64,000 nt of DNA from Acidobacteriota bacterium (lineage in GTDB: Bacteria; Acidobacteriota; Aminicenantia; Aminicenantales; Saccharicenantaceae): positions 41,742 through 105,741 of the forward strand of contig JAQULR010000004.1 of the NCBI GenBank assembly GCA_028749205.1, written 5' to 3'. Below the pieces are notes generated by a model, which had not been told where the DNA came from, did not search any database, and saw only the letters and a program-made list of their open reading frames with translations. This document shows positions 5,019-63,187 of this stretch, one piece after another. Each line of letters begins with the position of its first letter. The stretch's first letter is position 1. Both the position numbers and the translations under genes were made by a program.

Positions 5019-6656
5019 TTATTTCTGGTCCTTACTCAACGATTTCTGATATTTCTTCCGCCCAAGCGGCTGCCATTCGCCGTATGATTCTTCATGAAGA
5101 CGACATTGACCTTCAGAAGTCCAGGTGAAACCATAATTGTAGCCAAACCATAAGTATTTATCACCTCCACCATTTTCGGTAGTTATGATGTAGCGAGCAG
5201 CCACATTGCCTATGCCAAGTGCCCGACCGCCGGGAGCATCTACATCACCTTTATTGGCATCAAAAGGAATCCAACCGTAAGGTGGGAGATAAATCTCATT
5301 CCAGCGATGAAAAACATCGTCATAGCTGGCATCATCTCCCCGAAGGCTGACTGTGCCCACATAGCGGGCAGGAACTCCTAAAGCCCGACAGAGAGCAATC
5401 AGAGAATAGGTATATTCAGAGCAGGAAGCTGTTCCCCGACGGAGGACAGTTGGGGCCGGATTCCAGCCACCAACCGGCTTTAGGTTATAGCTGAGATGAT
5501 TGATCAGGTACTCATAGATTTTTCTGGCAATCCAGTAAGGATTCTTTTCGTCCCCGGCAATCTTTTTAGCCAGGTCCTGAATGAAAGGATCATTTAAGCA
5601 GTATTTATCGCCATCAACCAAGTATTTTTTCTTGATATCTTCGGGAATTTGGTCAAGAGTGCCAACCCTGTCGGGATAGATGAAATATTCCACCGCATAA
5701 ACTTTGGCTTTAACCAGCCAGCCTGGCTGAACCGTATTACCTGCTTTAAGATTTTTATAGCCGAAATGAGCAATCTTCTGACCCCAGACATCGGTAATCA
5801 TCTCAGTTGGTTTCTGCAGGAATTCTACCGGTCCCAGCAGTTTCTGATTATCGCGGTCTTCGGGAATCGGTAAGTAGATGTCAAGGCTGGTAACTGTACC
5901 TGGCCCATAATTTCGAAATTCCTTGACAAATCGAAGCTCGAGTTCCTTTTCATCCCACAGAGTCATTATGTCATCGTCAAATACCTTAATTTGATATATT
6001 TCATCATTTTCATAATCTACGTTCCACAGATCCTGACCATCAAAGGCCAGACCATAAGGAAACGGTCCATAGGAGCGAAGCGAAGACAGGCACCAACCAG
6101 AGGCCGGGTCAACCAGGAAAATCCGGTCCATAGCCCGGTCAGTAATCCAGAGATATTTTCCATCAAACTCCAGGCCAGCCGGCTCATTACCCGGTGAGGC
6201 AAATTGCTGGATCATCATTCCATCCACAGGCGAGCAGCGAATTATCGAGTTATTGCGGACATCGGTCATCCACAGGTCTTGACCATCCCAGGCTAAATCT
6301 CGCGGTTGGTTGCTGTTTGATTCCAGAGCTTTCAGGATAGCTCCGGTTTCCGGGTCAAGGCAATAAACCAATCTTTCAGCTGCATCCACGTGCCAGAGAT
6401 TTTGGCCATCCCAAGCCAGACCCTCAGGATGATAACCCGGAGAATCAAAAGACTTAACAACCTTACCTGTAGCCGGGTCAATCTTGAAGATTTTATCCAG
6501 CCGGCTGTCAGCCAGCCAGAGATACTGCCCGTCAAAGGCCAATCCAGTAGGAAGTGGACCAGGTGTTTTAATGACCTTGACCACCTGACCAACCTTTGCC
6601 TGGGCCAGTGGCACAAACAGGATTATGATTGCCAGAGCCAGACACACTTTTTTCAT
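5019..6656 (-). CDS. Secreted beta-propeller (glutamine-cyclotransferase-like repeats) fused to a transglutaminase-core domain
   Basis: There are five DG(Q/K)xLW repeats. They are followed by TGase catalytic elements: C in GTASCSEY, H in HRWNEIY, D in FDAN. I moved the start to ATG 6656 (MKKVCLAL signal peptide), which is preceded by AGGAGGAA. The track start at 6686 is a TTG. Confidence 0.8.
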   Translation of the reverse strand: MKKVCLALAIIILFVPLAQAKVGQVVKVIKTPGPLPTGLAFDGQYLWLADSRLDKIFKIDPATGKVVKSFDSPGYHPEGLAWDGQNLWHVDAAERLVYCLDPETGAILKALESNSNQPRDLAWDGQDLWMTDVRNNSIIRCSPVDGMMIQQFASPGNEPAGLEFDGKYLWITDRAMDRIFLVDPASGWCLSSLRSYGPFPYGLAFDGQDLWNVDYENDEIYQIKVFDDDIMTLWDEKELELRFVKEFRNYGPGTVTSLDIYLPIPEDRDNQKLLGPVEFLQKPTEMITDVWGQKIAHFGYKNLKAGNTVQPGWLVKAKVYAVEYFIYPDRVGTLDQIPEDIKKKYLVDGDKYCLNDPFIQDLAKKIAGDEKNPYWIARKIYEYLINHLSYNLKPVGGWNPAPTVLRRGTASCSEYTYSLIALCRALGVPARYVGTVSLRGDDASYDDVFHRWNEIYLPPYGWIPFDANKGDVDAPGGRALGIGNVAARYIITTENGGGDKYLWFGYNYGFTWTSEGQCRLHEESYGEWQPLGRKKYQKSLSKDQK

Positions 6657-6830: not shown

Positions 6831-8129
6831 ATGCTCAGAACTTCTCAAAGAAATTACTACCTGGTTTTTTTGATCTTTCTGACTTTCTTCGTCATTTCTC
6901 TTCTAACCAACATAATTGGTCCGCTCATCCCGGAAATCATCCAGAGTTTTAATTTAAGCCTGGCCCTAGCCGGGTTCTTGCCTTTTGCTTTTTTTATAGC
7001 TTATGGGGTGATGTCGATTCCCGCGGGCTTTCTCGTCGAGAAGTACCGCGAAAAAAAAGTTATGACAACTGCTTTCATTCTGGCTTTAGCTGGAGCTCTC
7101 CTCTTTGCTCTGTTTCCGAATTATTCAATCGCCACCATGTCGCTTTTTTTGATTGGCCTCGGTATGGCCATGCTCCAGGTGGCCATTAACCCTCTGCTCC
7201 GGGTATCTGGAGGAGAAGAGCACTTTGCCTTCAATTCAGTCATGGCCCAATTGATTTTTGGGGCGGCTTCCTTCCTGAGTCCTCTCCTCTATTCCTACCT
7301 GGTAACTAACCTCCCGCTGGCCGAAAAGCAAAACCTGTGGCTCAAAAGTTTGCGCCAGCTCGTTCCAGCTCATCTCCCCTGGGTATCCCTTTATTGGGTT
7401 TTTGCGGCCATTGCCCTGCTGATGTTCTTAATTATTTTTTCTTCCCGCTTTCCAAAAGTCGAATTAACAGAAGAAGAAAAGGCCGGCACCTGGGCTATTT
7501 ATAAAATTCTTTTGAAAAAAAGGGCCGTCCTTCTCTATTTCTTTGGCATTATGGCCTATGTCGGCACTGAACAGGGCCTGGCTAACTGGATATCTCAATT
7601 TCTTAAAACCTACCATGGATTAGACCCCCAGACAGCCGGAGCCCAGGCGGTCTCTTATTTCTGGGGACTGATGACCGTGGGCTGCTTGATGGGGCTGGTT
7701 CTCCTCAAGCTCCTGGACAGCAAAAAGGTCCTGGTGATTTTTTCCATTTTAGCCATCATCTTGCTCAGCCTGGCCCTTTTTGGTCCTGGAGAACTTGCCA
7801 GGTGGGCCTTCCCATTGCTGGGTTTTTCAGCCTCGGTGATGTGGTCAATTATCTTTTCCCTGGCTCTCAATTCAGTTGAAGCTCATCAAGGGGCCTTTTC
7901 TGGACTTCTCTGCACCGGCATAGTTGGCGGAGCCCTGGTGCCTCTGCTTATCGGCTGGCTTGGTGACCATCTTGGCCTTCGCCAGGCGATGTTTGTCCTT
8001 TATCTAACCCTGGCTTATATTCTAAGCATAGGCTTTTGGGCCAGGCCGCTCATCAGCAACGAAACCATCTGGATGAAAAGAAAAAAGAAACTGGCAGCCA
8101 GTCAACAATTAAAAGCTGACCAGTTATAG
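6831..8129 (+). CDS. MFS sugar transporter (FucP / glucose-galactose transporter-like)
   Basis: 12-TM MFS topology. The N-terminal region resembles sugar MFS permeases. The next gene is a ROK kinase. Confidence 0.75.
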   Translation: MLRTSQRNYYLVFLIFLTFFVISLLTNIIGPLIPEIIQSFNLSLALAGFLPFAFFIAYGVMSIPAGFLVEKYREKKVMTTAFILALAGALLFALFPNYSIATMSLFLIGLGMAMLQVAINPLLRVSGGEEHFAFNSVMAQLIFGAASFLSPLLYSYLVTNLPLAEKQNLWLKSLRQLVPAHLPWVSLYWVFAAIALLMFLIIFSSRFPKVELTEEEKAGTWAIYKILLKKRAVLLYFFGIMAYVGTEQGLANWISQFLKTYHGLDPQTAGAQAVSYFWGLMTVGCLMGLVLLKLLDSKKVLVIFSILAIILLSLALFGPGELARWAFPLLGFSASVMWSIIFSLALNSVEAHQGAFSGLLCTGIVGGALVPLLIGWLGDHLGLRQAMFVLYLTLAYILSIGFWARPLISNETIWMKRKKKLAASQQLKADQL

Positions 8130-36373: not shown

Positions 36374-37078
36374 ATGGCAGAGATGGGCGCTGACAGGAGA
36401 AGCTCCGGACAGCCAGTAACGAGCATGAAGAAAAAACAGACTCTTGATCTCAGCCTTTATCTAGTTACTGACCGCCGTTTAGCTCAAAATAGACCCCTTC
36501 AAGAATTAGTCAAGAGAGCAGTGTCTGGAGGAGTAACTGTGGTCCAGCTAAGAGAAAAGGATTGTTCATCCCGGGAGTTTTTAGAGCTGGCACTTGAAAT
36601 CAAAAAGGTTTTAACGCCCGAAATTCCTCTGATTATAAATGACCGTCTCGACATAGCCCTGGCAGCTAAAGCCGACGGCCTTCACCTTGGCCAAACAGAC
36701 CTTCCAGTAGAGGTGGCCAGAAAACTTCTCGGCCCCAGGGCAATAATTGGCCTTTCGGTGGAAACTTCAGAGCAGCTTACCCGAGCTCGGAATCTACCGG
36801 TTGATTATTTGGCTTTAAGTCCGGTTTTTTTGACTTCAACCAAGACCGATACTGCCCCCGCCTGGGGTCTGGAAGGAATAGCTGAAGCCAGAAAAATAAC
36901 CAGTCAGCCTCTGGTAGCCATCGGTGGTCTGAACAAAACCAATGTCCCCGAGGTCATCAAGGCCGGAGCTGACGGAGTAGCTGTGGTTTCAGCCATCTGC
37001 GCCGCCGAGGATCCCGAAGAGGCCGCCAGAAATCTAAGAAGGCTGGTTGATGAAGCTCGAAAAATAAGAGAAATATAA
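36374..37078 (+). CDS. thiE: Thiamine-phosphate synthase
   Basis: LYLVTD and VQLREK motifs, GGI near the C-terminus. An AGGAGGG RBS precedes ATG 36374. An alternative internal start exists at MKKKQ. Confidence 0.85.
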   Translation: MAEMGADRRSSGQPVTSMKKKQTLDLSLYLVTDRRLAQNRPLQELVKRAVSGGVTVVQLREKDCSSREFLELALEIKKVLTPEIPLIINDRLDIALAAKADGLHLGQTDLPVEVARKLLGPRAIIGLSVETSEQLTRARNLPVDYLALSPVFLTSTKTDTAPAWGLEGIAEARKITSQPLVAIGGLNKTNVPEVIKAGADGVAVVSAICAAEDPEEAARNLRRLVDEARKIREI

Positions 37079-37080
37079 AA

Positions 37081-38124
37081 ATGAAGAACAAATCAAAGCT
37101 AAAAATCGCCGACCTGGGAGAATTTGGTTTTATTTCCTGGTTTTCTCCGGCTTTCACCAAAAACCTGCCCCCCCAGCTCACCGGTATCGGCGACGATTGC
37201 GCCGTAATTCCCTGGCGAGGAACAAAAAGGCTCTTAGTAACCACTGATTTGCTAATCGATGGAGTACATTTCTTAAAGGATAAAATTTTACCGGCCGATT
37301 TAGGCTATAAATCCTTAGCCGTCAACCTGAGTGATATTGCCGCCATGGGGGGAACTCCTCGCTGGGCTTTTCTATCAGCAGCCATCCCGCCCGAAACCGA
37401 GATGACCTGGTTAAAAGCCTTCTTCAGTGGCTGGCGTCATCTGAGCTCCAGGACGGAGGTTTACCTTCTCGGCGGAGATACCACCCGATCCCATAACAAC
37501 CTGGTAATTAACGTAGTCGTCCTGGGGGAAGCCCAGGAGAAATTAATCAAATATCGCTCAGGAGCCAGACCCGGGGATCTCGTAGCTGTAACCGGTAACC
37601 TGGGGGATTCCGAAGGTGGGTTAAGGCTTATCTTACAGAATTCGAGGAAACACCAGTTGACTTCCCGAGAGAAATATCTTATCCGCCGCCATTACCTTCC
37701 CCGCCCCCAGCTTGAAGAAGGACAGTTCCTGGCCCACCAGCCTGAGGTCCGGGCCATGATGGATATCTCGGACGGTATCGACTCCGACCTCAGAAGAATA
37801 ATGGAAAGTTCTGGGTGTGGAGTGAAAATCAATCTGGAAAACCTACCAGTCTCGCCGGCTCTTCGCCACTGCTGTCGGAAATATGGCTGGAATCTGGAAG
37901 AAGTGGCGGCGGCTGGAGGGGAGGATTATTGCTTGCTTCTCACCGTTAACCCGAAGAACTTTTCAACCTTAGCCGCCAGATTTTACCGCCGGTTTGGCCG
38001 TAGACTCCGAGCCATCGGGACAATAACTGCCAATAGAGGAAAATTAGTATATCTAAAAGAGAACCGCCTGGTTAAGCTCAAGAAAACCGGCTATGACCAC
38101 TTCAGCCTGCGGTCTAAGCCTTGA
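37081..38124 (+). CDS. thiL: Thiamine-monophosphate kinase
   Basis: AIR-synthase-like fold motifs (GDDCAVI, DLLIDGVHF, GGDT). It completes the thiMEL cluster. Confidence 0.85.
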   Translation: MKNKSKLKIADLGEFGFISWFSPAFTKNLPPQLTGIGDDCAVIPWRGTKRLLVTTDLLIDGVHFLKDKILPADLGYKSLAVNLSDIAAMGGTPRWAFLSAAIPPETEMTWLKAFFSGWRHLSSRTEVYLLGGDTTRSHNNLVINVVVLGEAQEKLIKYRSGARPGDLVAVTGNLGDSEGGLRLILQNSRKHQLTSREKYLIRRHYLPRPQLEEGQFLAHQPEVRAMMDISDGIDSDLRRIMESSGCGVKINLENLPVSPALRHCCRKYGWNLEEVAAAGGEDYCLLLTVNPKNFSTLAARFYRRFGRRLRAIGTITANRGKLVYLKENRLVKLKKTGYDHFSLRSKP

Positions 38125-38138
38125 TTTAAAGACCGCAG
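38107..38138 (+). terminator. Stem-loop spanning the thiL stop codon (weak terminator candidate)
   Basis: CTGCGGTCT-14 nt-AGACCGCAG gives a 9 bp perfect stem. The downstream sequence is A/T-rich but is not a clean U-tract. Confidence 0.3.
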
Positions 38139-38254
38139 AATAAAATATCTTCTCTTAATCTCTTAAAGGAATCTGCTTTGGACCTCTTATTGTCTTTTAT
38201 TCAGGTTCCTTTTACTCATTTTCTAATAAAACAGACCAATATTAAGACAACTTT

Positions 38255-38660
38255 GTGCCCGAGTCTCCCCTAACGCCCCCTGAGGAACCGGTACATTACA
38301 TATTTTAAAACCTCTGAAGCAATTTCTCCATGGGAATCAGCGAGATATTTAGGTATTCATTGGTTCCAATTCTCCCCTTGGCCTCCTTGAGAACCAGTCC
38401 CGTCGGCCCCTGCGCCGTCTTAGCTGGCGGGTCCTCCCTCCCCTGTGGAGTCCAATGGAGAAACTCGAACTTCTTCTTTGCTATCCGGCCCCGTGGGAAA
38501 CCATTACTTTTATGTCTTGTCCCTGAGGTATCAACTTAGCCAGGTTGATTTCTAATTGGCGCCTAATACATCGGGGTATTAAATGGTATTTAGAGACCTG
38601 AGTTTCCCCTCAGGCCTCTTGGGGAACGAGAGTTGAGTGTTTCGTGTTATTTCCCGCGGG
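38255..38660 (-). ncRNA. Candidate structured non-coding RNA of unknown family
   Basis: About 400 nt between convergent genes, more GC-rich than its flanks, with no credible ORF. Hairpins and helices seen:
- 38592-38619: 11-bp stem in which a plus-strand A-C mismatch becomes a G-U pair only on the minus strand.
- 38530-38549: second hairpin.
- 38323-38335 pairs with 38451-38463: a 13-nt long-range inverted repeat with one mismatch.
The minus strand is the G-rich strand. Confidence 0.35.
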
Positions 38661-38664
38661 GTTT

Positions 38665-41352
38665 TCAGGGCAACTCATTTAGAGAGTTAAAATCAATAAC
38701 CCTGGTTTTTTCCACAGTACCCGGCAAGGAGGCTATTCCTTTAATTTCCTTCCAGTGCTCTGTGCCCGGTTCACCGCAGCGGACGGTATAATTTCCGGCT
38801 CTGAAAACAACCGGCCGGAACTCTGTGCCCGAAATCCTCAGGCTGTAAACAATCTGACCAGTTCTCTCTTCAACCACCTGAACCACTGGATTTTCCAGGC
38901 CCTTTATTTTGAGGACCGGAAGGTAGGCTACCGGCTTCCGGCCTTCATTCTCCAATTGAGCAAAGGCCACCGGCCAGCCGGGATAAAGTTTCAATTCAGA
39001 GATCTCTGTATCCTCAGGACGTTTCAGGCTCTCAAAGGTTATCCGTCTGGTGGTTCTATCAAAAGTTACCAATCCAAAACCAGCCGGACCTTTATCGAAG
39101 GATAGCTGTTCTCCCTCCACCGGATTGGTTACAACTTGCAGGCTGAACCTGTTGCCGAAGGCATCTTCAAAGCTGCCTGTTGCCTGAGGTTCTTTTATGG
39201 CCGCCAGTCGGCCAGAGGGTTTTGGCATCCAGCGGACTGCCAGGCTGCTCACTATGGGTGGTGGGACAAAGGCCCAACTGGCTTCAGCTGATTTTTCCAG
39301 CCCGTATTGTAAGGCAGCCGTTGGGCCTCCTGAGCCAGCGATCTGAACAGCTAAGCCCTGGCGGATAATCCTCAAAGCCTCGTCTCGAGCTGATGGCGGC
39401 CAGCCACCTGAATTGAAGTCAGCTGCCGGTCGGTCATCAGGCGGATATTCTCCTTTTTTAATTGAGGCCAATTTCCACAGGGCTTCCTCTCCCCTCATCC
39501 CTTCTGGCAGAGTCAGCAACGAAACCCAGACTGATTGAGAAAGCACGGCCTTCATCCAGACATCTGAAGACCAGTCAGTTACCCACTCTTTAAGAAAGTC
39601 AAGCTGCTCCTGACCATGGAGCCAGGCCTCTTTCACCCGAGTCTTTTTTTTGAGGTCAAAATCCGGATTTAAGGCCCAGCCATTTCTTATCTGAGCTTCA
39701 GGAAGCAACGGAGCTGGGGCTGACCTGAAGGTCCGGTCATCAATTATCGCCAGGCTGAGACCAGCATACCTGACTTCACAGAAATAGGAATTAATTTTAT
39801 CTTCAGTTGAGCGACTGCCCGGTCCAGGTGGTAGATGACAGGTCTGGGTTTTAAAAACCAGTTGGACAAATTCTTCAGGCATTAAGAATCCCCCACTATC
39901 CTGAGCCGCTATCCAATCAGAATCTGGAATCTCCTCTATCAGCCGGCCATTTTCACCCCAGAGTTTGGTCTGGAAAAAATCTCGGGCATCAGGAATGATT
40001 ATTGCAGGTCTATCTTTAAGCAGGTCAGCAAAAGCCCAGCCAAAAAGCAGCCATTGCCTTAGATATTCCTGCTTAGCCTCCTTCAGGGTGAATCTTTCCC
40101 GAAAGAAAGACGCCGGCCGGCCGTAAACCTGGTTGCCGCCAAAAAAAACCAGGTCTGGATCCAGTTTTTTTACTGCCTTAACCAATCCTGAATGGGGGTA
40201 GCCAGCCTCCTGGTTTCCGCTCAGCACCGCCAGCCGCAGACGGTCACCGGTCAACAATTCTTTTCTTATCACCCCCATAGGAATCCGGCTGCTGGCTGTT
40301 TCCCGCTCGAGACCCTCGACCATCACCCGGAATTCTAAGTCTTCCTCATAGCTCCAGTCTGGAACCTCAAAACAGGCTATCCATGAATTAAGGTCCACCT
40401 CAGCCTCGGCCACTCTATACCAGTAATCATCTTCTCTTATATCCAAAAAAGCTCTGGCCTTCTCAACCAGGCAACCGGGAATCAGCTGAGCTGCTAGTCT
40501 CAAAGTTTTTTGGCTCAGGGTGTAAAGGGTAAAAGCCACCGGTCCCAGGGCTCTGTCTTCAAAACTCTGATAGAGGCTGCCTTCTATCCAGAGATCTTGA
40601 AACCAGCTCACTTCAGCCTCGGGTCTCGGCTTGACTTCAGGCAGGCTGGAGACCAGGGCCAGACCACCCGCAACCCGCTCAGCCGGCAGATTAAAATCTT
40701 TTAGTTCATCGAGAACTCTTCCGGTTTCAGTATCTCTGATAGTCACTTCAAGATTAAATCGGTTGGCAGAAGCTTCCAGAGCCAGCTTTAATTCCAGCCC
40801 CTTTCTCAGAGCCCTTTTGATAGTCTCCTGCTTTTCCCTTGAAGTAACACTCTCCAGTTCCCCGATAAATAGCAAGCCTTCAGAAGTCAAGCCAGCCTCC
40901 AGACCTTGAGCACTGAGGGCGGCTTCACGAAAATCGCCGCTTTTACTTTTGACTCCAAGTCTTAAGCCGAGATAGTTTCTGGCTCTGGGTCTTTCCGGTA
41001 GCTCTGGCACCGAGACTATCATGGTTACTTCAAGGTCGCCTGAACCTCCGGCTACTCCCCCGGTTAAAAGATAAAGATAGCGGTTAGAAGCTCCCACCAG
41101 GCACTCAATCCTTCCCCGGGAGAGACGCCAGTCCTCCAGACGGTGGGCATAGAAATCCGGTCCAATCCAGGGACGGTTTGTCTCCGGGGAAAAGTCCGGC
41201 CTTAATTGACCGGCCCGGGCTGATATAAAAATCATAAAGAGAAAGGCTAAAATAAAAATTAAACTACTAACTGTGGTCCGGCAAATGCTACCAGCTCTGG
41301 CCAATTTTTTTCTGGACAGACCTTCTCTCTTTATAATTGTGCTCAAACTCAT
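38665..41352 (-). CDS. Large membrane-anchored/secreted hypothetical protein with a central region faintly resembling PhoD-like phosphatases
   Basis: 895 aa continuous ORF with an N-terminal TM helix. Segments FFGGNQVYG and IIDDRTFRS are reminiscent of PhoD-family motifs, but the canonical metal ligands cannot be verified by eye. Confidence 0.6.
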   Translation of the reverse strand: MSLSTIIKREGLSRKKLARAGSICRTTVSSLIFILAFLFMIFISARAGQLRPDFSPETNRPWIGPDFYAHRLEDWRLSRGRIECLVGASNRYLYLLTGGVAGGSGDLEVTMIVSVPELPERPRARNYLGLRLGVKSKSGDFREAALSAQGLEAGLTSEGLLFIGELESVTSREKQETIKRALRKGLELKLALEASANRFNLEVTIRDTETGRVLDELKDFNLPAERVAGGLALVSSLPEVKPRPEAEVSWFQDLWIEGSLYQSFEDRALGPVAFTLYTLSQKTLRLAAQLIPGCLVEKARAFLDIREDDYWYRVAEAEVDLNSWIACFEVPDWSYEEDLEFRVMVEGLERETASSRIPMGVIRKELLTGDRLRLAVLSGNQEAGYPHSGLVKAVKKLDPDLVFFGGNQVYGRPASFFRERFTLKEAKQEYLRQWLLFGWAFADLLKDRPAIIIPDARDFFQTKLWGENGRLIEEIPDSDWIAAQDSGGFLMPEEFVQLVFKTQTCHLPPGPGSRSTEDKINSYFCEVRYAGLSLAIIDDRTFRSAPAPLLPEAQIRNGWALNPDFDLKKKTRVKEAWLHGQEQLDFLKEWVTDWSSDVWMKAVLSQSVWVSLLTLPEGMRGEEALWKLASIKKGEYPPDDRPAADFNSGGWPPSARDEALRIIRQGLAVQIAGSGGPTAALQYGLEKSAEASWAFVPPPIVSSLAVRWMPKPSGRLAAIKEPQATGSFEDAFGNRFSLQVVTNPVEGEQLSFDKGPAGFGLVTFDRTTRRITFESLKRPEDTEISELKLYPGWPVAFAQLENEGRKPVAYLPVLKIKGLENPVVQVVEERTGQIVYSLRISGTEFRPVVFRAGNYTVRCGEPGTEHWKEIKGIASLPGTVEKTRVIDFNSLNELP

Positions 41353-62527: not shown

Positions 62528-63187
62528 ATGCCCAGGATAGCCCGAATCGTCATTCCTTACATCCCCCATCACGTAGTCCAGCGCGGGAACCGCAATCAGC
62601 GGGCCTTCTTTTCAGAAGATGACAAAAAGCTCTACCTGAAAATACTGGGCTTTAATTGCTCAAAGGAAAAAATTAAAATCTGGTGCTATTGTGTGATGGA
62701 TAATCACATTCATCTTGTGGCGGTCCCAGAAAGTGCTGAGCATCTGGTCAAAGCCATCGGTGAGACTCACAGAAAATACACCTGGATGATAAACACTCGC
62801 AATAACTGGAAAGGTTATCTCTGGCAGGGTCGGTTTCGGTCATATCCGATGGACGACGTCTATCTTCTCTGTTGCGTCAAATATATTGAGCGAAATCCGG
62901 TAAGGGCTGGTCTGGTCAGACTGGCCGAAGAATACCAGTGGTCAAGCGCCCGGGCCCACGTTTTTGGATTAAAGGATCCTGTGCTCAGTCCACTGCCTTT
63001 AGTCTCTCAAGTCAAGAACTGGAGTAATTTTCTCCGGGGGGAAGATAAGGAAGAAGATTTAGAACTTCTCAGGAAGAATCAAACAGTCGGCCGACCTCTT
63101 GGCAGCGAGGATTTTATCGAGATGATTGAAAAAACGACAGGGATCCGTTTAAGGAAAAGACCATCTGGACACCTTAGAAAAATATAA
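62528..63187 (+). CDS. rayT: HUH / Y1 single-strand DNA transposase of the REP-associated tyrosine transposase (RAYT, IS200-like) type
   Basis: N-terminus RIARIVIPYIPHHVVQRGNRNQ. HUH motif in MDNHIHLVAV. Catalytic-Tyr motif KYIERNPVRAGLV. The ORF is intact (219 aa). Confidence 0.8.
   Translation: MPRIARIVIPYIPHHVVQRGNRNQRAFFSEDDKKLYLKILGFNCSKEKIKIWCYCVMDNHIHLVAVPESAEHLVKAIGETHRKYTWMINTRNNWKGYLWQGRFRSYPMDDVYLLCCVKYIERNPVRAGLVRLAEEYQWSSARAHVFGLKDPVLSPLPLVSQVKNWSNFLRGEDKEEDLELLRKNQTVGRPLGSEDFIEMIEKTTGIRLRKRPSGHLRKI

Follow-up and report, generated by a model that had tools for sequence, protein, structure and literature searches.

We consider it very probable that positions 38255-38619 of the window, i.e. 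of the 64,000-nucleotide stretch of Acidobacteriota DNA analysed here, represent a lineage-specific cluster of one complete, degraded copy and fragments of an order-specific MITE-like repeat. The repeat family is uncatalogued and is not in Rfam. The region is not a single 400-nt RNA gene. The first-pass annotation had read 38255-38660 as a candidate novel structured RNA; a structured element absent from Rfam is indeed located there, but the match to a conserved, covarying structure is limited to 114 nt (38361-38474).

The cluster is located in a 540-bp gap between two convergent genes, thiL (plus strand, ending at 38124) and an ORF of 895 aa without a Pfam match (38665-41352, minus strand, stop at 38665). 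A high GC content, which had been ascribed to the entire 400 nt, was seen only at about 38350-38500 (0.61-0.63), while the remainder of 38255-38660 had a GC content of 0.39-0.46, lower than that of the adjoining coding DNA. The gap was non-coding as claimed. All stop-to-stop frames are short with a maximum of 76 aa on the minus and 73 aa on the plus strand, none of them matched a protein family, reading in six phases found every phase broken, and the 69-aa ORF of the gap had no Pfam match. On the other hand, the description of the whole 406 nt as highly self-complementary did not hold. Compared with dinucleotide shuffles the MFE had a z of -1.30 for the minus and -1.22 for the plus strand, and 12 and 15 of 100 shuffles, respectively, folded as well. 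The motif CCTSAGGG, already noticed in the first reading, occurs three times in the region (38278, 38521 and 38607, all minus) versus 11 times across the 64 kb. Rfam yielded zero matches at the gathering threshold across the whole 64 kb, the region included; with E up to 10 only chance-level snoRNA and lncRNA matches appeared in 38255-38660, and five loci with intact copies of the family gave no match with E up to 1. The gathering scan also showed no TPP riboswitch before thiE (36374-37078) and thiL (37081-38124). No terminator-like site, i.e. a GC-rich hairpin with a U-tract, was detected in 38000-38800.

The family was found via the window's own genome, in which the middle of the gap had weak repeated matches, all of them in other intergenic regions. 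From the family we built a covariance model (R1) with three helices, the outer stem P1 and the hairpins P2 and P3. The sole significant R1 match in the window was 38361-38474 on the minus strand with 86.9 bits and an E of 6e-18. This A unit is a full-length but degraded family member of 114 nt with a GC content of 0.61. It consists of a long outer stem P1, the junction ACAGGGGAGGGAGG, the hairpin P2 and a hairpin P3 of GGGGCC-GACGGGACU-GGUUCU. The copy is worn: the fold had -45.5 kcal/mol and a z of -2.2 versus -83.5 kcal/mol and a z of -7.75 for an intact copy on contig C68 of the same genome.

The A unit is flanked by two accessory segments and two partial copies, all on the minus strand. 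Nearest to the 895-aa gene is a hairpin made up of arms only (38592-38619, from sequence and fold) with an 11-bp stem and the 6-nt loop GGGAAA. The MFE was -19.2 kcal/mol with a z of -4.4. As the first reading had stated, the single A-C mismatch of the plus-strand stem is a G-U pair on the minus strand. The hairpin sits 46 nt past the stop of the 895-aa gene on the strand of that gene, and no U-tract follows it. Its 3' arm, GGGGAAACUCAGGUCUCU, resembles the 3' strand of the family outer stem, GGGGAGACUCCGGCCCCU, at 14 of 18 positions. A whole-model match to R1, in which the core was skipped, had 9.2 bits and an E of 5.2, which alone is not significant. Judged by its sequence, the hairpin is probably an internally deleted copy of the family.

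The adjacent B unit (38488-38591) is an AT-richer accessory segment that is homologous to the segment after a family copy on contig C30 (C30:7099-7221; nhmmer E 1.1e-6, blastn 41 bits). It holds the second hairpin of the first reading, 38530-38549 with 6 bp, and ends in a remnant of the family 3' part (UGGUUUCCCACGGGG). B units were confined to this genome and one orthologous locus of the species G020. By eye, the promoter-like boxes TTGATA (38534-38529) and TAAAAG (38512-38507) were seen on the minus strand with a spacing of N16; the consensus scan was silent. Similar boxes, again by eye, are present in the B segments of the window (38507-38534, minus strand), C30 (~7165-7195) and C68 (~5540-5575) as TTGATA/TTGACC/TTGAAC, 16-18 nt and TAAAAG/TAAAAC/TAACAT. 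A GGUUCC segment follows them at 6-7 nt, and their direction is away from the repeat copy that precedes them.

Beyond the A unit follows the second accessory segment, the B-prime unit (38290-38360), homologous to C9:25056-25153 (nhmmer E 1.1e-7; blastn 49 bits, E 3e-6). Positions 38323-38335 of this unit repeat part of the A 3' arm. The 13-nt long-range helix of 38323-38335 with 38451-38463, complementary at 12 of 13 positions, exists because of this partial arm. A promoter-like TGGAGA-17-TAAAAT is located at 38330-38302 on the minus strand, where the scan found two sites versus 0.7 expected, which is not significant. The cluster ends with a solo 3' half of an A-type element, GGUUCC-UCAGGGGGCGUUAGGGGAGACUCGGGCAC (38255-38289), which is composed of the 3' strands of P3 and P1. 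It was identified by blastn to the arms of other copies, i.e. on C68 (84% over 38 nt), C56 (95% over 22 nt) and C9 (88% over 26 nt), and in the MFE fold it was able to pair with the 5' arm of the A unit. Thus the long-range helix and the alternative pairings seen at first arise because one 5' arm faces three segments that resemble a 3' arm. The spacer after thiL (38125-38254) is AT-rich with a GC content of 0.30-0.43 and lies outside the cluster; blastn and nhmmer against the repeat family detected nothing beyond chance in it.

Orthologues of the 895-aa gene were identified in 24 of the 25 other species of the genus with 47-62% identity; the gene usually adjoins a gene for an M55 D-aminopeptidase. 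In 11 orthologous thiL/895-aa gene loci the downstream gap measured 0-300 bp, and R1 had no match in any of them. Because the orthologous gaps are short and devoid of a copy, the cluster of the window is an insertion peculiar to this lineage. The region is not a locus-specific gene, and the element is dispersed, multi-copy and patchy. Homologous regions thus lacked conservation at the locus, but the element family itself covaried strongly. A search of metagenome contigs for a near-identical strain with an empty site found no exact match to the thiL end.

The genome has 2.1 Mb and is 92% complete; in it R1 detected nine copies, seven strong and two weak, distributed over eight contigs. All are intergenic, adjoin unrelated genes and occur in either orientation. 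The element was found in 13 of the 25 other species of the genus and in 74 of 151 genomes of the order, corresponding to 27 of 60 genera and more than 800 matches, and many genomes of the order hold at least 24 copies each. The complete 4.07-Mb genome G025 had 37 copies and genome G050 about 50. In the rest of the phylum none of 150 genomes had the element by R1. The exact 21-nt P3 sequence was present in at least 119 stretches of a collection of species-representative genomes, and almost all of these carry the title of an Aminicenantes, Aminicenantales or Saccharicenans MAG. The core was not found in viral contigs, so no phage carriage was seen. The same GC-rich core, CAGUAGYGGARGGGGUCCC...GGGGGAACCGACGGGACUGGUUCCC, also turned up three times in a MAG titled Candidatus Yanofskybacteria (MGJA01000012.1, L157:1130-1370; MGJA01000010.1, L169:5750-5990; MGJA01000013.1, L179:3050-3290) at loci with a GC content of 0.40-0.42; the outer arms were AT-richer and differed between the copies. 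These copies reflect either a cross-phylum transfer or mis-binning.

The genomic context of the copies did not reveal a preference. Relative to the flanking ORFs, 48 copies were distributed as 7 sense, 14 antisense, 14 convergent and 13 divergent, which looks random. Among 120 flanking ORFs 158 Pfam families were detected, none of which was enriched, and there were no transposases. A link to large neighbouring proteins was rejected, these proteins being unrelated to each other. Likewise, a riboswitch or cis-regulatory leader was discarded in view of the mixed orientation, the unrelated flanking genes and the position of the window copy between convergent genes. In several species the units form head-to-tail tandem arrays of two to five on the same strand. 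One array locus, between tRNA-Glu(CTC) and a fucose-isomerase-like gene, is common to four species of the genus (L021:1040-1610, L024:1500-1960, L018:1050-1610 and L028:1207-1615). The units of these arrays are near-identical, and only the last one has a complete outer stem. A consensus scan found no sigma-70-like promoters in the array spacers of the relatives. The fucose-isomerase-like gene was not found in the window's genome.

The family unit of about 115 nt has a middle that stays constant, enclosed by a long, imperfectly paired outer stem. The sequence of P1 varies from copy to copy with complementarity kept. The core of about 70 nt is near-constant across the order and comprises the junction AUAGCGGAGGGGG, a sequence-variable hairpin and the invariant P3 hairpin GGGAACC-GACGGGACU-GGUUCCC. 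In 73 matches from many genomes standard pairs filled 93.7% of the pair cells versus 69.0% in shuffles, and controls with slid partners were paired to 44-53%. Of 39 pairs, 30 had changed on both sides; P1 and P2 covaried heavily, while P3 was near-invariant. Because the 73-match alignment used for the pair counts had been fitted to R1, wobbles were recounted in a strand-symmetric way, with the 3' arm of each copy reverse-complemented and aligned to the 5' arm. P1 had 66 G-U versus 29 A-C and P2 45 versus 4. Copies with more G-U numbered 48, those with more A-C 6. Binomial tests exaggerate the strength of this excess, as the copies are related; the direction was consistent across genera. RNAalifold yielded -52.4 kcal/mol for the minus strand compared with -39.4 kcal/mol for the other strand. 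Minus as the structured strand, initially suggested by one G-U pair, was thus supported for the family. Hence one strand, the minus strand of the window, is kept foldable, which implies either an RNA or a DNA strand whose polarity is fixed. A pseudoknot between loop and junction, an idea gained by eye, had no support by covariation between copies. Taken together, the conserved middle, the covarying ends and the one-strand wobbles point to selection on a single-stranded form.

A bacterial MITE is generally defined as a small element with TIRs around a core and target duplications that lacks a transposase and folds into a long hairpin (PMC3184786). The units described here have a size of 115-200 bp, do not contain an ORF and are dispersed in many copies. 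They also possess long TIRs with equal forward and reverse counts (GTAAGCATCTCC... in G050, CTAATGCAAACGCGATAA in G025), the ends being formed by the outer stem. In G050, core and stem are located inside a longer palindrome with the ends GTAAGCATCTCC...GGAGATGCTTAC, of which 98 termini were counted, 49 on each strand. The ends were set by alignment to the terminus consensus, and then the 9-mers outside were compared. The flanking 9-mers were identical in 3 of 20 copies and matched at 8 of 9 positions in 3 more, while none of 380 mismatched-flank controls reached 8 of 9. This 9-bp match is a target-site duplication, the mark of transposition. It flanks the longer shell in another family of the order and not the 115-nt unit itself. 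No target-site duplication was visible around the cluster of the window or around the other copies of this genome.

The core recurs in different surroundings. The shell of G025 differs from that of G050 (CTAATGCAAACGCGATAA..., 31 termini on each strand), and the core is the same. Internally deleted derivatives devoid of the core exist in relatives. The arms in G025 are slightly asymmetric, and relative to them the core can point either way; between the orthologous loci on C68 of the window's genome (G000) and C37 of G020 it is inverted. Occasional recombination between the long arms is the simplest explanation of the inversion. P2 of the core harbours another, nested element in two G050 copies (L137:100-330 on G050:C33 and L138:110-330 on G050:C58). 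This second palindrome measures about 190 bp, reads GGACACTCTTGGAGG...CCTTCCAAGAGTGTCC and has a middle centred on GAATTC.

A transposase partner with matching ends was not found; most of the genomes screened for an autonomous IS were MAGs, so this absence is weak evidence. An origin from IS66, guessed from GTAAGC ends and a duplication of 8-9 bp, was dismissed as PF03050 was absent from 8 genomes. Parents of the IS4/IS5 type (PF01609) or the IS630 type (PF13358) were rejected as well; elements were found, in one genus, with unrelated TIRs, and the TIRs of an IS630-type element of G120 had no relation to the family. At the solo ends of G025, where an autonomous element might have been located, only deletion derivatives were present. 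A two-layer model, in which an inner TA-duplicating unit resides in a CTAG-centred shell, was not confirmed: no empty shell was found in three genomes, only a handful of copies (L061, L005 and some inner junctions of G050) had TA on both sides, and the pattern was inconsistent overall. Y1_Tnp was present in 127 of 151 genomes of the order regardless of the element, and the complete genome G025 with its 37 copies has none. In the window's own contig a Y1_Tnp (IS200/RAYT-like) match was seen at G000:C58:104311-104637 (about 62570-62896 of the window, plus strand) near GGGGACAC hairpin repeats, unrelated to the family. Another unrelated element is a 1606-bp IS of genome G077 (L128:1099-2704, G077:C1), which looks active with at least eight identical copies, a 435-aa DDE_Tnp_1 transposase, the ends GCCCGAAATTGCCGATAGGA and duplications of 4-5 bp.

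Among known systems the family is most readily compared with Correia/CREE of Neisseria, ERIC of enterobacteria and RUP of pneumococcus (PMC3184786). Like these it is non-coding, about 100-200 bp long with inverted-repeat ends, and present in dozens of intergenic copies that are patchy among relatives and lack an internal transposase gene; target-site duplications (9 bp in G050) and a transcript or strand that can form a long stem are further common traits. In contrast to them, the ends of our family are variable and covary while a middle of about 70 nt is conserved order-wide, the outer shell around the core changes from one family of the order to another, G-U wobbles are heavily skewed to one strand, and a parent insertion sequence was not found. 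Sequence similarity between the families was not seen, in line with the lack of an Rfam match. As in invertons, the segment between the arms occurs both ways round, and one orthologous locus differs in this respect between two species; but no invertase gene lies nearby, the segment is short (about 70 nt), and a promoter within it was not shown. In the literature library searched, we found no paper that links Aminicenantes to MITEs or similar repeats.

The pattern of conservation is the reverse of that of a textbook MITE and looks more like that of a functional RNA. In a rival reading, the A unit or the arrays are trans-acting small RNA genes with their own promoters, encoding a three-way-junction RNA of about 115 nt that binds a protein or a target and spreads by gene amplification. 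Strong covariation, the conserved core and the one-strand G-U excess would suit such genes, as would the same-strand arrays at the tRNA-Glu/isomerase locus of four species, which could be a bona fide RNA gene there, and the promoter-like boxes that B units have 6-7 nt before GGUUCC (seen by eye, one site reported by the scan). Yet dozens of copies per genome with a patchy distribution even within the genus, 9-bp target-site duplications, TIRs and the in-place inversion of the core are at odds with it; array spacers of the relatives have no sigma-70-like promoter, the copies are not followed by a terminator, and the window copy is degraded and missing from the orthologous loci. We regard small RNA genes as unlikely. 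Slightly less probable still is a function of the cluster as a 3' structure of the convergent genes, i.e. a bidirectional terminator or an RNA-stability element for the thiL and 895-aa transcripts like REP/ERIC. Co-transcribed repeats at the 3' ends of genes are reported to affect mRNA stability (PMC3184786), a canonical terminator was not found between the two genes, the -19.2 kcal/mol hairpin follows the stop of the 895-aa gene at 46 nt on the same strand, and 14 of 48 classified copies reside in convergent gaps. But U-tracts are missing, relatives manage with gaps of 0-300 bp without the element, and divergent gaps and antisense positions in tandem gaps are occupied just as often. Such a function would be a side effect that leaves the conserved core unexplained.

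A further reading is a REPIN/REP-type repeat whose mobility depends on a Y1 (RAYT/IS200-like) transposase recognising a hairpin on one DNA strand; the strand-specific conservation of hairpins would suit it. REPINs and REP-BIMEs with RAYT resemble the family in being intergenic hairpin repeats in clusters and arrays with compensating changes and strand-specific folding, and Y1_Tnp is common in the order with one match in the window's contig. Against this, Y1_Tnp is absent from the complete 37-copy genome and several other copy-rich genomes, while seven members of the genus without copies possess it, so there is no co-occurrence. Moreover, the unit is far longer than REP, has a three-way junction and forms head-to-tail arrays, and it has 9-bp target duplications and TIRs, which are not features of Y1 (IS200/IS605) transposition. 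We deem this origin very improbable. The chance that the region is a degraded protein-coding gene is close to negligible. Stop-to-stop frames of 76 aa (minus) and 73 aa (plus) are all that could be cited for it; the 69-aa ORF lacks a Pfam match, all six phases are broken, and the homologous stretches are without exception intergenic repeats in which conservation follows stem pairing rather than codons.

Thus we favor the view that the region is a cluster of MITE-like repeats. The element would be moved by a trans-acting transposase, and the cluster in the window may have begun with an insertion that was then partly duplicated in tandem and decayed. The core would be kept through its action as a single strand of one polarity, either as RNA or as a DNA strand during mobilisation; such action would explain the one-sided G-U excess. 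Any effect on neighbouring genes, e.g. of the 3' hairpin after the 895-aa gene, would be incidental. We further propose, tentatively and as a possibility that we hold with clearly less conviction, that the core of about 70 nt with the AUAGCGGAGGGGG junction, the covarying hairpin and the invariant P3 is a functional single-stranded module, RNA or mobilisation DNA strand, which has repeatedly come to lie at the centre of different palindromic shells. It may persist across the order and apparently also in a MAG of the candidate phyla radiation with separate arms for each copy. It would then be a mobile structured nucleic-acid module of an uncatalogued kind, of which the window contains a dead copy.

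Aminicenantes are uncultured bacteria of sediments and digesters. For the window the analysis removes a candidate large non-coding RNA, and the region at 38255-38619 is repeat debris that should be masked rather than modelled as a gene. The family itself is an abundant, uncatalogued component of Aminicenantes genomes that breaks contigs and creates false calls of structured RNA. Should the core turn out to be an RNA, or a module recognised by the mobilising enzyme, the family would provide a useful new model of small mobile elements that carry structured cargo.
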